DNA from: Escherichia coli O127:H6 str. E2348/69
Lineage (GTDB): Bacteria; Pseudomonadota; Gammaproteobacteria; Enterobacterales; Enterobacteriaceae
NCBI RefSeq assembly: GCF_000026545.1
Contig: NC_011601.1
DNA length: 64,000 nt
Reading direction: 5' to 3' (one strand)
Positions 1 to 4,607 of the stretch are shown piece after piece. The translations under genes and the position numbers were made by a program. The notes below the pieces were generated by a model. That model had not been told where the DNA came from. It did no database searches and was given only the letters and a program-made list of their open reading frames with translations. Numbering within the stretch: position 1 is the stretch's first letter; every line of letters begins with the position of its first letter.

Positions 1-603
1 GCAACGGCACGACCGCTTTCCAGGGTACGGAAAGAGTCACCGTGATCTTTGGCGCTGATGATGCGCATATTCATTTTTTGCTCTTCATTCAGTTTGTTGA
101 GCAAAACTTCAGAGGTGGTGCCGGAAGTGACGACTACGGCTTTGCCTTTCAGGTCGGCAAAATCTTTGATATCGCCGCCCTTTTTGGTCAGCAGGCGCGT
201 ACCGACCACGAAAATAGTGTCAGAGAAAGCCGCCTGTTTTTGGCGTTCGGCATTGTTGGTGGTAGAACCGCATTCAAAATCGAAAGTGCCGTTTTGCAGC
301 AGTGGAATACGGTTTTGTGAGGTGATCGGAATCAATTTCACCTGTAAGTCTGGTTTGTTGAGTTTCTTTTTCACTGCTTCAACAATGGCGTTGGAGTAAT
401 CCTGCGAGTAGCCCACCACTTTTTGCTGATTGTCGTAATAAGAGAAAGGTACTGAAGATTCACGGTGACCGACGACAATCACGCCGTTTTTGGCGATTTT
501 GTCCAGCGTGCTGCCTGCTGCCGGGGCGGCGTCATCTGCCTGTGCCAGTCCTGCGGAAAGCGCCAGGGCCAGGATTGCTGTGGCAGGTTTACGTAATTGC
601 ATA
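1..603 (-). CDS. gltI: Glutamate/aspartate ABC transporter periplasmic binding protein GltI, N-terminal 201 codons (3' end lies beyond the left window edge)
   Basis: Absent from the ORF track because it has no in-window stop. My reverse-complement translation from the ATG at 603..601 reads MQLRKPATAILALALSAGLAQADDAAPAAGSTLDKIAKNGVIVVGHRESSVPFSYYDNQQKVVGYSQDYSNAIVEAVKKKLNKPDLQVKLIPIT, a signal peptide plus solute-binding protein that I recognise as GltI. The + ORFs 42..320 and 49..399 are antisense shadows. Confidence 0.9.
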
Positions 604-1055
604 TCCAACTCCTTTATCTTCTGCGTTAAAAACGCATGGATACCCGTTGTGAGTGTTTGTGTTGTTATCATCTGCGACTTTATTGTGCAGTGTTGTGTTT
701 GTTAGGTAACATTTAGTTTGGATAAATGTAAAGATATTGATGTTTTATTGTTTATTTTTGCGAGGTGCGCCGCACCATTCCGAAGCAAAATTCTTAAACC
801 GCACCTTTTTGGTGCTACCGCTGATTTGTGGTGGTGCAACCCGGTTGCGTTGCGGCTGATTTCATTGCTTACACAGTAAATAAAGCAACTTACATGCCAA
901 AAAATACTTAGGGGTGAATTAATTACGATTGTAATTTCAGTTTGAAAAAGTCATATTTCGGACAGTGTTAACTTTTCGGTGTGGGACGTTTGCCGGGATG
1001 ATAACTACACACGGGAAAATGCTTTTTACTAGTCTTTTCAAGGAAGAATCACCTT

Positions 1056-2933
1056 ATGTCTGCATCTTCGGTTAAGCCGTTAAATGTTCAATTACCCGCA
1101 ATAACCCTGATCCTTTTTGCGCTCTGTGTTGGGATATTTTGTTACCTCGCACAATGGATGAGTTACGAAGAAGTCGATCAATCCGCACTCATCCATCTCG
1201 GCGCTAACGTTGCCTCTCTCACGTTGTCGGGTGAACCCTGGCGCTTATTGAGCAGTGTCTTTCTGCACAGTAGTTTTTCCCATTTGCTGATGAATATGTT
1301 TGCACTCCTGGCGGTGGGGACAGTAGCGGAACGGATACTGGGGAAATGGCGACTCCTGATTATCTGGTTATTCTCCGGCATCTTTGGTGGGCTGATCAGC
1401 GCCTGTTATGCGTTACGCGAAAGTGAGCAGATAGTCATCAGCGTTGGGGCATCCGGGGCAATTATGGGAATAGCGGGCGCTGCGATAGCAACACAGCTTG
1501 CTTCAGGTGCGGGCACACACCATAAAAACCAGCGGCGAGTATTTCCTCTGTTGGGTATGGTGGCGCTGACACTGTTGTATGGTACCCGGCAAACAGGAAT
1601 AGATAACGCTTGCCACATTGGCGGCCTGATTGCGGGGGGCGCGTTGGGTTGGCTGAGTGCGCGTTTAGTTGGGCAAAATCGGCTCGTTACGGAAGGCGGG
1701 ATTATTGTTGCGGTCACTCTTCTTCTGACCGGGACTATCTGGCTTGTGCAGCAGCAGATTGATGAATCAGTTTTACAGGTCAGGCAAAGCCTGCGTGAAG
1801 CGTTTTATCCGCAGGAGATTGAACAAGAGCGACGACAAAAAAAGCAGCAGTTAGTGGAGGAGCGCAACGCCCTCAGGGAAACATTATCCGCTCCGGTAAG
1901 TCGTGAGCAGGCCAGTGGTGATTTACTCGCTGAGATTGCCGATATCCATGATATGGCGATCAGTCGGGATGCTAATACGTTGTATGCCGCAATTGAAAAC
2001 ACGAACAGCATTGTTGTTTTCGACCTCGGACAAAAGAAAATCCTGCATACCTTTACAGCGCCCATAGCGAAAGAAAAGTCAGTCAAACATTGTGGTGGCT
2101 GTAAAGATCAGGGCGTCAGATCGATGGCATTAAGCCTGGATGAAAAGTTGATTTATGCGACTTCATTTGAAGCGAATGCGTTATCGGTCATTAACGTGGC
2201 GACGGGGGAGATTATTCAGTCGATTACCACCGGCGCACATCCTGACAGCCTTATCCTCTCGTGTGATGGCACAAAAGCCTGGGTGATGAATCGCACCAGC
2301 AATAGTGTGTCAGCGATTGATCTGGTGGCTTATCAGCATGTGGCGGATATCCCGCTGGAGAAATACGACGGGACGGGGATGAGCGGTAAACCAGGCGCCT
2401 GGGTTATGGCACTTTCCCCGGATGAAAAAACATTACTGGTTCCGGGAGCAGGCAGAGGTAACATCGTGCGGTTCAATACCATCACGCATCAGAAAGAAGA
2501 CTTTCCCGCAGGTAATGCGCGTGGTGTCGTTTCTGCGATGGGATTCCGACCAAAAAATGGTGAGGTTATTTTTGCCGATAGCCAGGGGATTTCACGTATA
2601 AGAGCAGAGGATCAACAAGCCAGCATTATGACGCAATGGTGTCGCAGGAGCGTTTATTCCGTTGAGGGTATTAGCCCGGACGGTCAGTATTTAGCGTTGG
2701 TGTCATATGGCCTGCAAGGTTATGTCATCCTGCTCAATATTAATGCCGGGCAGATTATTGGCGTTTATCCTGCCAGCTACGTTAATAATCTTCGTTTTTC
2801 AGCGGATGGTAGAAAGATATTTGTTATGGCGAAGAACAGGTTAATCCAAATGGACAGGACGCGCTCGATTGATCCGCAGGCAATTATTCGGCATCCCCAA
2901 TATGGCGATGTGGCTTGTATCCCTGAAACGTAA
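1056..2933 (+). CDS. Rhomboid-family intramembrane serine protease (7 predicted TM segments) fused to a coiled-coil linker and a C-terminal 7-bladed YVTN/YncE-like beta-propeller
   Basis: 625-aa ORF. Rhomboid hallmarks are all visible: L1 WR motif (GEPWRLLSSVFLH), HxxxxHxxxN (LHSSFSHLLMNM), catalytic GxSG (GASGAIMG) and catalytic His helix (ACHIGGLIAGG). An extra hydrophobic segment (IIVAVTLLLTGTIWLV) follows the 6-TM core. Next comes a charged heptad-like stretch (EIEQERRQKKQQLVEERNALRE). Then seven repeats of the type S-x-D-(G/E)-x-hydrophobic ... N-x-V-x-V-I-D, for example MALSLDEKLIYATSFEANALSVINVATGEII. Confidence 0.8.
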   Translation: MSASSVKPLNVQLPAITLILFALCVGIFCYLAQWMSYEEVDQSALIHLGANVASLTLSGEPWRLLSSVFLHSSFSHLLMNMFALLAVGTVAERILGKWRLLIIWLFSGIFGGLISACYALRESEQIVISVGASGAIMGIAGAAIATQLASGAGTHHKNQRRVFPLLGMVALTLLYGTRQTGIDNACHIGGLIAGGALGWLSARLVGQNRLVTEGGIIVAVTLLLTGTIWLVQQQIDESVLQVRQSLREAFYPQEIEQERRQKKQQLVEERNALRETLSAPVSREQASGDLLAEIADIHDMAISRDANTLYAAIENTNSIVVFDLGQKKILHTFTAPIAKEKSVKHCGGCKDQGVRSMALSLDEKLIYATSFEANALSVINVATGEIIQSITTGAHPDSLILSCDGTKAWVMNRTSNSVSAIDLVAYQHVADIPLEKYDGTGMSGKPGAWVMALSPDEKTLLVPGAGRGNIVRFNTITHQKEDFPAGNARGVVSAMGFRPKNGEVIFADSQGISRIRAEDQQASIMTQWCRRSVYSVEGISPDGQYLALVSYGLQGYVILLNINAGQIIGVYPASYVNNLRFSADGRKIFVMAKNRLIQMDRTRSIDPQAIIRHPQYGDVACIPET

Positions 2934-2961
2934 GAAAAAAGGGGCATGATAATCATGCCCC
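2931..2961 (-). terminator. Intrinsic terminator oriented for the minus strand (end of the ybeZ-ybeY-corC-lnt transcription unit)
   Basis: GGGGCATGA/TCATGCCCC stem at 2941..2961. The A-run at 2935..2940 becomes the U-tract on the minus strand (GGGGCATGATTATCATGCCCCTTTTTTCTTA). That U-tract overlaps the TAA stop of the + strand rhomboid ORF. Confidence 0.6.
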
Positions 2962-2993
2962 ACAACTCAATGAGAAAGTATGTTTTGTTGATA

Positions 2994-3049
2994 CCGGATG
3001 CGGTGTGAACGGTTTATCTGGCCTGCAAAATTGATGCAATTTTGCAGGC
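2994..3049. repeat. REP-like palindromic unit plus a 12-bp-stem hairpin downstream of lnt
   Basis: ccggatgcggtgtgaacggtttatctggcctgc resembles the E. coli REP consensus (GCCGGATGCGGCGTGAACGCCTTATCCGGCCTAC). gcctgcaaaatt-gatgc-aattttgcaggc at 3021..3049 is a perfect inverted repeat. Confidence 0.5.
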
Positions 3050-3065
3050 CAGCGCATCATTCACA

Positions 3066-4607
3066 TCAACGTTTACGTCGCTGACGCAGACTCATCAGCA
3101 CAGCTGCAAAACCAAACAGTGCCGTCAGCACCCACAGTGGCCAGTTGCCGGTACGTGCGTACGGGGTGAGTCCGGTGGTCGGCGTTACGTTAGTGGTTAA
3201 CACCTCGCGGGTGAACTGCGGGATCATCGCCTGAATCTCACCCTGCGGGCCAATCACCGCCGTAATGCCGTTGTTGGTGCTGCGCAACAGTGGGCGCGCC
3301 AGCTCCAGCGCACGCATTCGCGCCATCTGGAAGTGCTGCCATGGACCAATAGACTTACCAAACCACGCATCGTTGGAGATAGTCAGCAGATAGTCGGTAT
3401 CCGGGCGGAAGTTATCGCGCACTTGCTCGCCGAGAATGATTTCGTAGCAAATGGCCGCAGTAAGTTGAATGCCATTCAACGACAGCGGTGGCTGAATATA
3501 TGGTCCGCGGCTGAATGACGACATCGGCAAATCAAAGAACGGTGCTAACGGACGCAGAATCGACTCCAGTGGGACAAACTCGCCAAACGGCACCAGATGG
3601 TTTTTGTTATAGCGATCGGCTGATTCGTAGCTGTACGGTGCACCTTTACCCAGTGTGATGATGGTGTTGTAGGTATCGTAGCGGTTCTGCTTATTGAGAC
3701 GCGCGTCGACAATCCCGGTGACCAGCGAGCTACCTTTATCGCGCAACTCACCGTCCAGTGCTTTGAGGAACGGTTGCTGATTAATTTCCAGATCGGTTAT
3801 CGCCGACTCCGGCCAGATAATCAACGATGATTTGCCCATCAGCGGTGCCGTTGCGTTGTAGTAAATCTTCAGCGTATTAAGTAGCTGGTCTCCGTCCCAT
3901 TTCAGCGATTGCGGAATATCGCCCTGAACCATCGAAACCTGAATAGTTTTTTCCGGTTGCGGGGTAAACCACTGGATGTAACGCAGCGGGAAGGGAAGGG
4001 CAAACAGCACGACGGCCACCACCAGCGGACGCCAGTTGCGTTTGACCAACGCCAGTGCCAGCAGGCCGCTAACCATCATCAGCAGGAAGTTAATGGCTTC
4101 CACGCCCATTATCGGTGCCAGCCCTTTTAACGGGCCATCAATCTGGCTATAGCCGAACTGTAACCACGGGAAGCCTGTCAGTACCCAACCGCGCAGAAAC
4201 TCGGTCACTTGCCAGAGAGCAGGGGCGGCAATCGCCACGCGCAGCCAGGTGGTTTTCGGCCACAGACGCGACAGCACGCCAGCAAACAGTCCGGTATACA
4301 GCGACAAATACGCCGCCAGCAGTACCACCAGGAAGATGTTAACCGGGCCAGGCATTCCGCCAAAGGTCGCGATGCTGACATAGACCCAGTTAATACCGCT
4401 GCCAAAGAGGCCAAATCCCCAGCAAAAGCCAATAGCGGCAGACTGGAGTGGACGGCGGTTAAAGGTCAACGCCTGAAGCCCCATCAGCGAAATAATCGCC
4501 GCAGGCCAGACATCGTAAGGAGAGAAGGCCAGCGTTCCGCAGGCACCGAATAATAACGCCAGCAGCAGGCGAATGCGCTGGCGTTCAATTAATGAGGCAA
4601 AAGCCAT
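3066..4607 (-). CDS. lnt: Apolipoprotein N-acyltransferase
   Basis: 513-aa ORF beginning [43 protein letters not shown]. It has a multi-TM N-terminal part and a C-terminal nitrilase-type domain. Recognised as Lnt (CutE); synteny with corC, ybeY and ybeZ. Confidence 0.95.

Follow-up and report, generated by a model that had tools for sequence, protein, structure and literature searches.

The open reading frame (ORF) at 1056..2933 (+) encodes, in all likelihood, the Escherichia coli orthologue of Rhom7, a 6+1-TM rhomboid protease whose periplasmic beta-propeller probably serves as a binding platform and whose gene is dispensable and has been lost repeatedly. Positions refer throughout to the window, the 64,000-nucleotide stretch of DNA analysed here, which matches E. 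coli E2348/69 at 100%, an EPEC strain of phylogroup B2. The gene is already known: a 2020 study characterised Rhom7, which has a C-terminal domain, and showed it to be an active rhomboid of 7 TMDs (Liu et al., EMBO J 2020, PMC7232013). A preliminary description of this DNA, made from its letters alone, had correctly set the architecture apart from those of GlpG and AarA, whereas the novelty it implied did not stand, S. sonnei Rhom7 having been overlooked.

To establish the identity of the gene, we compared its sequence and position with those of its Shigella counterpart. The ORF runs exactly as first delimited, from an ATG start through 625 codons and a stop, yielding a 625-aa protein that bears the annotation "rhomboid family protease" (WP_001276764.1), its gene being flanked by gltI and lnt. 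A putative Shine-Dalgarno sequence, AAGGAAG, may be read 9 nt 5' of the ATG (1040..1046, +), and a scan for sigma-70-like promoters 5' of rhom7 returned no consensus site. Comparison with S. sonnei P0005 revealed 92% identity across 624 aa (full length), the gltI–rhomboid–lnt order recurs in S. sonnei assembly GCA_040670895.1, and Ser133 and His187 carry the same numbers in the window protein as in published Rhom7; in the S. sonnei variant that was compared, a 1-residue deletion places the His at 186. Only two rhomboid homologues are reported for S. sonnei, GlpG and SSON_0610/Rhom7 (PMC7232013). Orthology rests on identity, locus and numbering, and on these grounds the ORF is the E. coli orthologue of S. 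sonnei Rhom7 (SSON_0610, UniProt Q3Z4D6), with 1056..2933 (+) as the complete rhom7 CDS. The 90%-identity cluster that contains the window protein holds 8814 members, including entries from E. coli, E. fergusonii and S. flexneri.

The six-TM catalytic core spans aa 1-205 (1056..1670, +), as delimited by Pfam, motifs, alignment to GlpG, AF2 and an alignment of 45 family sequences. Pfam Rhomboid PF01694 covers residues 59-201 (E=1.2e-28; 100.6 bits vs a cutoff of 22.6), and the core carries W62-R63, H71xxxxH76xxxN80, G131-A-S133-G134, H187-I-G-G and G190xxxG194. These motifs align residue for residue with H. influenzae GlpG (2NR9), such that WR and HxxxxHxxxN coincide, GLSG corresponds to GASG and HISG to HIGG, and R63, H71, H76, G131, S133, H187, G189, G190 and G194 are invariant in the 45 family representatives. 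AF2 predicts the core helices at 15-32 (TM1), 74-95 (TM2), 97-121 (TM3), 131-149 (TM4), 152-178 (TM5) and 184-203 (TM6). The protein thus shows what defines the rhomboid family (PF01694 / MEROPS S54), namely the domain score, the Ser-His dyad, the WR/HxxxxHxxxN/GxxxG motifs and a predicted six-helix core. The catalytic codons, placed by motif and by the 2NR9 alignment, lie at 1452..1454 (+) for Ser133 in GASG and at 1614..1616 (+) for His187 in HIGG, and Shigella Rhom7 is active while S133A and H187A each abolish its activity (PMC7232013). The earlier view that this is a catalytically intact rhomboid with every motif at its canonical place was therefore borne out, and the "AHxGG" given there reads literally A-C-H-I-G-G. 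Two more specific identities were tried and rejected: the GlpG equivalogs NCBIfam TIGR04239 and NF008155 scored 42.1 vs 250 bits and 36.4 vs 335 bits, and rhombosortase TIGR03902 scored 45.3 bits vs a cutoff of 84. With GlpG equivalog scores so far under their cutoffs, E. coli Rhom7 is a paralogue and not GlpG itself.

Past the core, the seventh hydrophobic helix that had been noticed from the letters is placed by hydropathy at residues 210-235 and by AF2 at 209-233 (1680..1754, +), and it is predicted to run from cytoplasm to periplasm with R203 and R209 before it and Q-Q-Q-I-D-E-S after it. The segment that follows, aa 234-290 (1755..1925, +), fared differently. It had been described as a heptad coiled coil of about 60 aa, and we reject a continuous coiled coil since AF2 breaks the segment near Y251-P252 into helices at 237-250 and 253-272, since hydrophobic core residues fill just 44% of a/d positions in the best register (a crude heptad test), and since residues 253-272 are nearly all charged or polar (15/20 are E/D/K/R/Q). 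On the AF2 model, charge analysis and conservation, the segment looks like a charged helical spacer of roughly 55 residues that ends in a conserved motif, PxPVSxxxAxG (V281, A286, G288). Within it, codons 261-263 form an A7 homopolymer (1837..1843, +) that became apparent from allele comparison and is A6 in frameshifted HS-type alleles and A8 in an O111 allele.

The remainder of the protein, aa 289-625 (1920..2930, +), is predicted to form a closed, seven-bladed propeller of the YVTN type. The AF2 model of the whole protein (pLDDT 84.3) shows seven TM helices and seven blades, with 27 strands between 299 and 600 that arrange into four-stranded blades at approximately 299-334, 357-391, 396-433, 452-487, 494-528, 534-572 and 576-600; strand 289-292 probably completes blade 7, judging from strand order in the model. 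The YVTN repeat TIGR02276 scores 49.6 bits vs a cutoff of 27.85 over two stretches, and together with the predicted blade closure this agrees with the seven YVTN/YncE-like blades of the preliminary description. Orthology with YncE itself was rejected (PF21783, 23.2 vs 27.1 bits; NF052280, 30.9 vs 400 bits), the fold class being the same. The other similarities that Pfam and NCBIfam gave, to propellers of the lactonase, PQQ-associated and hydrazine-synthase kinds, are all weak and far below family cutoffs (Lactonase, 18.4 vs 21.7), and comparison with ligand-binding families gave no specific similarity, only generic seven-blade matches.

The periplasmic placement of the propeller, proposed earlier from topology, is likewise favoured here as a prediction. 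A count by eye, based on the sequence and on the limits of the AF2 helices, puts ~9 K+R residues on the predicted cytoplasmic side vs 3 on the periplasmic side, and they cluster in the N-terminus and in the TM2-3, TM4-5 and TM6-7 loops. Four propeller cysteines, C346, C349, C529 and C621, are each kept in at least 41 of the 45 family sequences. The positive-inside rule and these family-conserved Cys suggest that the propeller is periplasmic, where it is predicted to bear disulfides, C346-C349 and C529-C621 being the pairs presumed from sequence position.

Evaluating the family more broadly, an exhaustive search of representatives revealed at least 42 clusters at 50% identity in which the rhomboid-propeller fusion is 600-690 aa long and matches the query end to end. 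A profile search of genome contigs with the family alignment found, among the matches listed, full-length relatives in Paraburkholderia bannensis and one betaproteobacterial MAG, and ten distant members that were looked up are almost all metagenomic proteins, with one from an Oxalobacteraceae bacterium. Closer to E. coli, rhom7 occupies the same gltI/lnt position in K. aerogenes and another enterobacterium, where the orthologues share 48-52% identity with the window protein vs 83-95% for the flanking proteins, and the gene is probably ancestral at this locus. It had been called a stand-alone gene with no adjacent partner, which agrees with our search beside distant homologues (Pseudoduganella and two metagenomic contexts), where no conserved neighbour or partner gene was found. 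Rfam gave no match in window positions 1-3200. Downstream, a GC-rich hairpin followed by a T-run (2941..2961, -) is kept in all alleles examined and looks like an intrinsic terminator for the lnt operon, which is convergent with rhom7; read on the + strand, this hairpin lies 3' of the rhom7 stop and has no T-run after it.

Within E. coli, rhom7 is a presence/absence polymorphism, as had been suspected on the ground that K-12 has IS5 there and lacks the gene. A 2224-bp segment (848..3071; junctions 847 and 3072) is replaced in gene-less strains (K-12, O157:H7 and others) by an unrelated 154-bp filler, which showed no homology to the gene segment in a sensitive BLAST search. The 208 bp that precede the ORF (848-1055) occur specifically in strains with the gene. 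K-12 MG1655 carries the gene-less allele, and IS5 sits between gltI and lnt in one laboratory strain. Across 5426 complete E. coli genomes, rhom7 is present in 3237 and the filler allele in 2186, such that the gene is absent from 40%, while more than 3200 complete genomes hold the 1878-nt single ORF at 93-100% identity. Decay has also occurred where the gene is present: two independent frameshift alleles account for hundreds of distinct member sequences, and other strains carry an IS1 insertion or an internal deletion. Compared with the full-length ORF, the split versions have lost 1 nt. The propeller is still called as a separate ORF in frameshift alleles, and split fragments bear the NCBI name "beta-propeller fold lactonase family protein". 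Among six full-length alleles, the catalytic residues and all four Cys are intact save for G134E (GASG to GASE) in one. The dN/dS of rhom7 is 0.245 vs 0.035 and 0.036 for gltI and lnt, about seven times higher, and at ~0.25 it is well under 1 in all three domains. In E. coli, rhom7 is dispensable, fast-evolving, under relaxed constraint, and repeatedly deleted or inactivated; weak constraint and losses this common would also fit a gene that does little or nothing in this species.

What the protein may do can be approached through its Shigella orthologue, from which all biochemistry is carried over to E. coli Rhom7. When overexpressed, Rhom7 cuts the TM segments of orphan HybA and FdnH, as well as the HybO TMD, in a manner that depends on a helix-breaking proline, and the cut opens the way for respiratory-complex subunits that are unassembled to be degraded further (PMC7232013). 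HybA and FdnH are candidate substrates only, because they are cleaved only upon overexpression; native expression is very low, cleavage at the native level is undetectable, and Shigella mutated in both rhomboids shows no growth phenotype (PMC7232013). TM7 and the C-terminal domain are both unnecessary for cutting an artificial model substrate, the names of the deletion constructs being given in the supplement without residue boundaries (PMC7232013). The preliminary description had suggested a built-in module for recruiting substrates or sensing ligands, and the result with the model substrate speaks neither for nor against such a part where natural substrates are concerned. That paper includes a topology cartoon and never names the fold of the C-terminal domain (PMC7232013), and our literature search returned no account of what the domain is or does; searches pairing rhomboid with beta-propeller/YVTN or with gltI/lnt returned nothing relevant.

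Drawing these observations together, we infer that the propeller is most probably a substrate-binding platform. TM7 would carry the chain across the membrane, the charged spacer would keep the propeller over the active site at a set height, and the propeller would act as a protein-binding platform that selects natural substrates' periplasmic domains, or positions them, and takes no part in catalysis. A more specific version, which we consider unlikely, is that the propeller confers selectivity for orphan subunits by binding the partner-free face of folded, Tat-exported periplasmic domains, for example those of HybA and FdnH, and bringing the TM anchors of such proteins to the Ser-His dyad. If this were true, the A7-tract frameshift alleles, which split protease from propeller, would leave an enzyme that has lost its propeller and acts on another range of substrates. 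Both the orphan-selectivity reading and its frameshift corollary are undescribed so far, the 2020 paper leaving the role of the C-terminal domain open.

Other explanations deserve weighing against the binding platform. One would make rhom7 in E. coli an almost neutral relic near loss, still an ORF in E2348/69 but adding nothing measurable, with its redundant part in quality control covered by GlpG and FtsH. The deletion allele in 40% of complete genomes fits such a relic, as do the two frameshift alleles, the IS1 insertion, the internal deletion and the GASG to GASE allele, and so do a dN/dS sevenfold that of gltI and lnt, orthologues ~50% identical where neighbours stand at 83-95%, and the very low native expression and missing mutant phenotype in Shigella (PMC7232013). 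We nonetheless find this unlikely: against it stand a dN/dS of 0.25, well under 1 in all three domains, catalytic residues and four Cys intact in six full-length alleles bar the one G134E, a fusion kept across distant lineages, and a locus kept since before the Escherichia–Klebsiella divergence. It is also possible, and in our judgement quite unlikely, that the propeller is a periplasmic sensor gating the protease, such that a small molecule or envelope signal triggers cleavage of one dedicated single-pass regulator, which is the regulated cleavage that the preliminary description had proposed. B. subtilis YqgP would be a parallel, its extramembrane domain linking the sensing of metal to the cleavage of MgtE. 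Reviews do describe regulated rhomboid cleavage of this kind, and at least 42 distant clusters retain both the propeller and an intact protease; the propeller is joined to the protease by the conserved V281, A286, G288 linker motif and evolves at a dN/dS of 0.25, below 1. A gating domain sits poorly, however, with C-terminal-domain deletion having neither raised nor abolished activity on the model substrate (PMC7232013), with the lack of a conserved adjoining partner, anti-sigma-type or regulator gene in six contexts, and with a propeller that matches generic seven-blade proteins and no specific ligand-binding family.

We give still less credence to a propeller that works on its own, as a lactonase-like enzyme, periplasmic scaffold or chaperone, with the rhomboid mainly a membrane anchor; this appears very improbable. 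The weak lactonase, PQQ-associated and hydrazine-synthase similarities, the lactonase-family name on split fragments and the separate propeller ORF of frameshift alleles are what might suggest it. Yet the matches all fall far below cutoffs (Lactonase 18.4 vs 21.7; YncE equivalog 30.9 vs 400), the rhomboid catalytic residues, needless in a mere anchor, are invariant family-wide, and the propeller ORF freed by a frameshift presumably could not reach the periplasm because it lacks both a signal peptide and a TM segment. Finally, it is barely conceivable that the protein is an artefact, either two genes that were fused through a mistake in assembly or a frameshift error, or a C-terminal domain whose true place is the cytoplasm. 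The split versions in some strains might recall such an error, with no positive support found, but they derive from a single ORF by 1-nt deletions, and we reject an assembly fusion given that the 1878-nt ORF is single in more than 3200 complete genomes and has distant homologues of 600-690 aa; charge distribution and conserved Cys favour the periplasm. The preliminary description had itself raised the joining of two genes, and its single-gene reading held.

Dozens of distant lineages conserve the C-terminal domain beside a protease that is intact. The predicted disulfide-bearing periplasmic propeller, the natural propeller-less alleles and the 60/40 polymorphism together frame direct experiments on how a bacterial rhomboid picks its substrates. 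As K-12 is without Rhom7, conclusions drawn there from GlpG alone miss most pathogenic E. coli.

Among known systems, propellers of the YVTN/YncE type (1L0Q, 3VGZ and hydrazine synthase beta 5C2V_B) share just 14-20% identity with that of Rhom7 and are secreted alone, whereas the Rhom7 propeller is tethered to a protease. Providencia stuartii AarA is likewise a rhomboid of enterobacteria that possesses an additional TM helix, and both AarA and Rhom7 cut the TatA TM segment; AarA differs in being without a propeller and in having TatA as a dedicated substrate and a role in quorum sensing. The extra helix of AarA is N-terminal (1+6). Identity between AarA and Rhom7 is ~30% (PMC7232013). GlpG of E. 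coli and H. influenzae (PDB 2IC8, 2NR9) shares the six-TM core, the WR loop, HxxxxHxxxN, GxSG, and the TM6 His with GxxxG, and in Shigella it has HybA as a substrate in common with Rhom7, but it possesses an N-terminal cytoplasmic domain and neither a seventh TM helix nor a periplasmic domain. Bacillus subtilis YqgP (GluP) and the rhomboid-TPR fusions, which are the next-best sequence matches to the rhomboid part, resemble Rhom7 in their core, extra TM helix, extracytoplasmic repeat domain and involvement in membrane-protein quality control; YqgP departs from it in that the extracytoplasmic repeats are TPR rather than propeller, in its cytosolic metal-sensing domain, and in acting with FtsH on MgtE. 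S. sonnei Rhom7 has the gltI/lnt locus, Ser133/His187, a prediction of seven TM helices and a C-terminal domain of large size in common with the window protein, and the two differ in host and by ~8% amino-acid divergence.

A six-frame scan showed 1056..2933 on the plus strand to be one long ORF, which opens with ATG and encodes 625 aa, and the first 4.7 kb of the window match E. coli E2348/69 NZ_CP059840.2 at 100%, where it is annotated as CDS WP_001276764.1, "rhomboid family intramembrane serine protease". Its neighbours in the window, both on the minus strand, are the 5' part of gltI at the left edge and lnt (3066..4607) on the right, and the E2348/69 annotation likewise has gltI on one side and lnt-corC-ybeY-ybeZ on the other. 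The ORF and its coordinates are therefore real, as the preliminary description had it, and so is the stand-alone placement (divergent/convergent) of the gene. Upstream of the gene (rhom7) we saw no sigma-70 consensus promoter, and a search of the locus for Rfam elements found none. Directly after the stop lies a hairpin (2941-2961) that, because its T-run is on the minus strand, resembles the terminator of lnt. This hairpin is kept in all gene-bearing strains compared, and the spacer between the rhom7 and lnt stops varies among such strains (77 nt vs 126-132 nt; window 2934-3071, comparison contigs L088-L093 ~3879-4010), with differing REP-like palindromic elements.

Evaluating the rhomboid part, we found Pfam Rhomboid PF01694 at residues 59-201 well above its gathering score (100.6 vs 22.6 bits), and every rhomboid motif named earlier can be read in the protein, namely W62-R63, the TM2 motif H71xxxxH76xxxN80, the serine motif G131-A-S133-G134, and H187-I-G-G followed by G190xxxG194. 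In a search against sequences of solved structures, each of these fell opposite its counterpart in H. influenzae GlpG (2NR9), where the motifs read WR, HxxxxHxxxN, GLSG and HISG, and the Ser and His therefore occupy the canonical positions. Assignment as GlpG or a rhombosortase was rejected, with NCBIfam equivalogs giving 42 vs 250, 36 vs 335 and 45 vs 84 bits.

The closest studied protein comes from Shigella sonnei, where GlpG is accompanied by one other rhomboid homologue, SSON_0610, named Rhom7 for its seven predicted TMDs (Liu et al., EMBO J 2020, PMC7232013). Rhom7 uses Ser133 and His187 for catalysis, and the S133A and H187A mutants no longer cleave a TatA-based model substrate; enzyme lacking the seventh TMD, the C-terminal domain or both still cleaves it (PMC7232013). 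Plasmid-expressed Rhom7 cuts the TMDs of HybA, HybO and FdnH, with selectivity for orphan HybA and FdnH and a requirement for a TM proline (PMC7232013). The window protein carries Ser133 and His187 in exactly this numbering, and over 624 residues it shares 92% identity with an S. sonnei protein whose gene sits between gltI and lnt (the compared variant has a one-residue deletion that moves its His to 186). Because identity, locus and numbering coincide, the sequence evidence is sufficient for us to regard the window protein as the E. coli orthologue of Rhom7; its 90%-identity cluster holds 8814 members, E. coli, E. fergusonii and S. flexneri among them.

An AlphaFold2 model run on a 37-sequence alignment (mean pLDDT 84.3; 289 residues ≥90) places the six core helices at residues 15-32, 74-95, 97-121, 131-149, 152-178 and 184-203, and the seventh hydrophobic helix described previously at 209-233. 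The proposed coiled coil of ~60 aa with heptads could not be confirmed, as the linker is modelled as helices 237-250 and 253-272 with a break at ~Y251-P252, the best heptad register puts core hydrophobics at only 44% of a/d positions (a crude test with no dedicated predictor), and 15 of the 20 residues at 253-272 are E/D/K/R/Q. This linker looks like a charged helical spacer and ends in the motif PxPVSxxxAxG, of which V281, A286 and G288 reach 90% conservation or more within the family. Beyond it, the modelled strands of the C-terminal domain, 27 of them within residues 299-600, group as seven four-stranded blades, with blades 1-6 at approximately 299-334, 357-391, 396-433, 452-487, 494-528 and 534-572 and blade 7 made of 576-600 plus an N-terminal strand at 289-292 that, from the strand order, would close the propeller ring. 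Foldseek against the PDB returned the archaeal YVTN propeller 1L0Q on top, then G-beta, TLE1 and hydrazine synthase beta, and the YVTN repeat model TIGR02276 scored 49.6 vs a cutoff of 27.85, in agreement with the seven YVTN-like blades first read from the sequence. The YncE and lactonase family models of Pfam/NCBIfam both stayed under cutoff. Together, these results identify the modelled domain as a YVTN-type seven-bladed propeller that is the orthologue of no named propeller family.

The preliminary description had placed this propeller in the periplasm, and two indirect lines of evidence support that placement. Counted by eye from the sequence using the AlphaFold2 helix boundaries, K/R residues number ~9 in predicted cytoplasmic segments (K7 at the N-terminus; R93/K97/R99 in the TM2-3 loop; K157/R160/R161 in TM4-5; R203/R209 in TM6-7) vs ~3 in predicted periplasmic loops, and the residues after TM7 are Q-Q-Q-I-D-E-S. 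Independently, C346, C349, C529 and C621 are each kept in at least 41 of 45 family representatives (22-52% identical), which is how disulfide-forming residues of an oxidising compartment would be expected to behave.

We next turn to the wider family. A word-indexed search recovered few full-length relatives (Escherichia/Shigella at 88-97%, four sequences at 52-56%, Klebsiella aerogenes at 49% and a few at 24-32% including Pseudoduganella); the remaining rhomboid matches were GluP-type proteins in which the rhomboid is fused to TPR. When 1.84 billion cluster representatives were searched exhaustively with HMMER, the fusion proved to recur: at least 42 of them, 600-690 aa long, align end to end in one stretch at 26-35% identity, and ~16 more align through the rhomboid and first blades. 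Named members belong to Enterobacteriaceae and Burkholderiales (Oxalobacteraceae, Paraburkholderia), and most others are metagenomic. Given these full-length relatives, and the invariance of every catalytic residue in a 45-sequence alignment, rhomboid-TM7-propeller proteins are an established family, small and without a name, of enzymes with intact catalytic sites. Separately, many giant proteins of 1100-4700 aa (e.g., P0178, P0180, P0188 and P0233) match the blade 2-3 region (~aa 352-480) 6-21 times each; these are long YVTN repeat arrays unrelated to rhomboids.

At the locus level, K. aerogenes and another enterobacterium hold the gene at the same site in the order gltL-K-J-I, rhom7, lnt-corC-ybeY-ybeZ, and rhom7 is therefore probably ancestral there. 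Rhom7 is only 48-52% identical at that locus vs 83-95% for GltI, GltJ, Lnt, CorC and YbeY. Distant homologues (Pseudoduganella and two metagenomic contigs) share no common neighbour gene, which agrees with the earlier remark that no partner gene is adjacent. The gene had also been called strain-variable, and across 5426 complete E. coli genomes it is present in 3237 (93-100% nucleotide identity) and replaced by a 154-bp filler in 2186, the two states covering 5423. The filler (1348-1501 in the gene-less contig L002, vs window 848-3071) shares no homology with the gene segment in our comparison, and an O157:H7 strain and the laboratory strain L003 both have their junctions at window 847 and 3072. 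One filler at all empty sites, with the same junctions in these two strains, suggests a single ancient deletion/replacement allele and not many separate losses. The earlier statement that K-12 has an IS5 copy and not this gene is confirmed; MG1655 carries the empty allele, and laboratory strain L003, besides lacking rhom7, has IS5 (L003 1207-2400) upstream of gltI, between gltI and lnt, where flanks overlapping by ~5 bp (window ~702-706) are consistent with a target-site duplication.

Where present, the gene evolves under loose constraint, with dN/dS among six intact alleles of 0.245 vs 0.035 for gltI and 0.036 for lnt at similar dS (core 0.22, TM7 and linker 0.31, propeller 0.25). Rhom7 is faster than its neighbours both within E. 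coli and against K. aerogenes (48% vs 83-95%), and the elevation is alike in the three domains. Several alleles are broken. An A7 tract at window 1837-1843 (codons 261-263) has lost one nucleotide (A6) in the HS strain of E. coli and in a cluster of ORFs with 555 distinct member sequences. The gene is thereby broken into a 265-aa rhomboid-TM7 ORF and a 336-aa ORF for the propeller, which amounts to a naturally occurring C-terminal-domain deletion; in an O111 allele the tract is A8. A second, independent 1-nt deletion at codon 193 (GGGTGGC to GGGTGC; window ~1634), in a Logan SRR25553748 contig (L097), cuts the rhomboid short in TM6 and gives 199-aa and 440-aa ORFs, the latter with a cluster of 640 distinct member sequences. 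IS1 splits the gene in E. coli O15_8X (NZ_CM182542.1), the pieces being annotated apart as a rhomboid family intramembrane serine protease and a "beta-propeller fold lactonase family protein". E. coli BS-01 has an internal deletion (window 1128-2790) that leaves the first 72 nt and last ~143 nt; its lnt is an annotated partial pseudogene. The one O111:H8 genome checked, 08-4347, has an otherwise intact allele with G134E (GASG to GASE; window 1455-1457), and as Gly134 adjoins the catalytic Ser and is invariant in 45/45 family members, this may be an inactivating missense mutation. In S. sonnei, native Rhom7 expression was too low for cleavage detection, and growth, Biolog, oxidative-stress and T3SS assays all failed to show a phenotype for a double rhomboid mutant (PMC7232013). 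Taken together, dN/dS, presence/absence, inactivating events and absent expression signals point to weak but real purifying selection on a gene that E. coli readily does without.

By homology to the studied orthologue, the protein would be a Ser-His intramembrane protease that cleaves type I/III TM anchors with helix-destabilising residues and would target unassembled HybA- and FdnH-type subunits. TM7 would export the C-terminal part, and the charged helices would hold a disulfide-bonded propeller over the active site on its periplasmic side, where it would bind periplasmic domains of natural substrates. We favour this substrate-binding role because protease and propeller are co-conserved, because the propeller is dispensable for catalysis itself, and because the known substrates all carry folded domains on the periplasmic side. 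A ligand-gated sensor and a propeller with an autonomous function are the rival readings of the domain, and the lack of any ligand-binding or enzymatic family signature weighs towards protein binding over both. A third rival, that the gene is a near-neutral relic in E. coli, is compatible with a substrate-binding propeller.

As the E. coli orthologue of a protein published in 2020, rhom7 is already known, so the novelty implied at the outset falls away; otherwise that observation was right except for the coiled coil. Rhom7 is entered in a 2025 review under UniProt Q3Z4D6, its substrates being given as FdnH, HybA and HybO and its function as "protein quality control". The word "propeller" is absent from the Rhom7 paper (PMC7232013), and we found no literature linking a bacterial rhomboid to a YVTN/beta-propeller domain, so that, as far as we searched, the C-terminal fold is visible from public domain models yet undiscussed. 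Relative to the known Rhom7, what is new here is descriptive: the C-terminal fold with its blade count and conserved Cys residues, the wider family, and the pattern of presence/absence and decay in E. coli.
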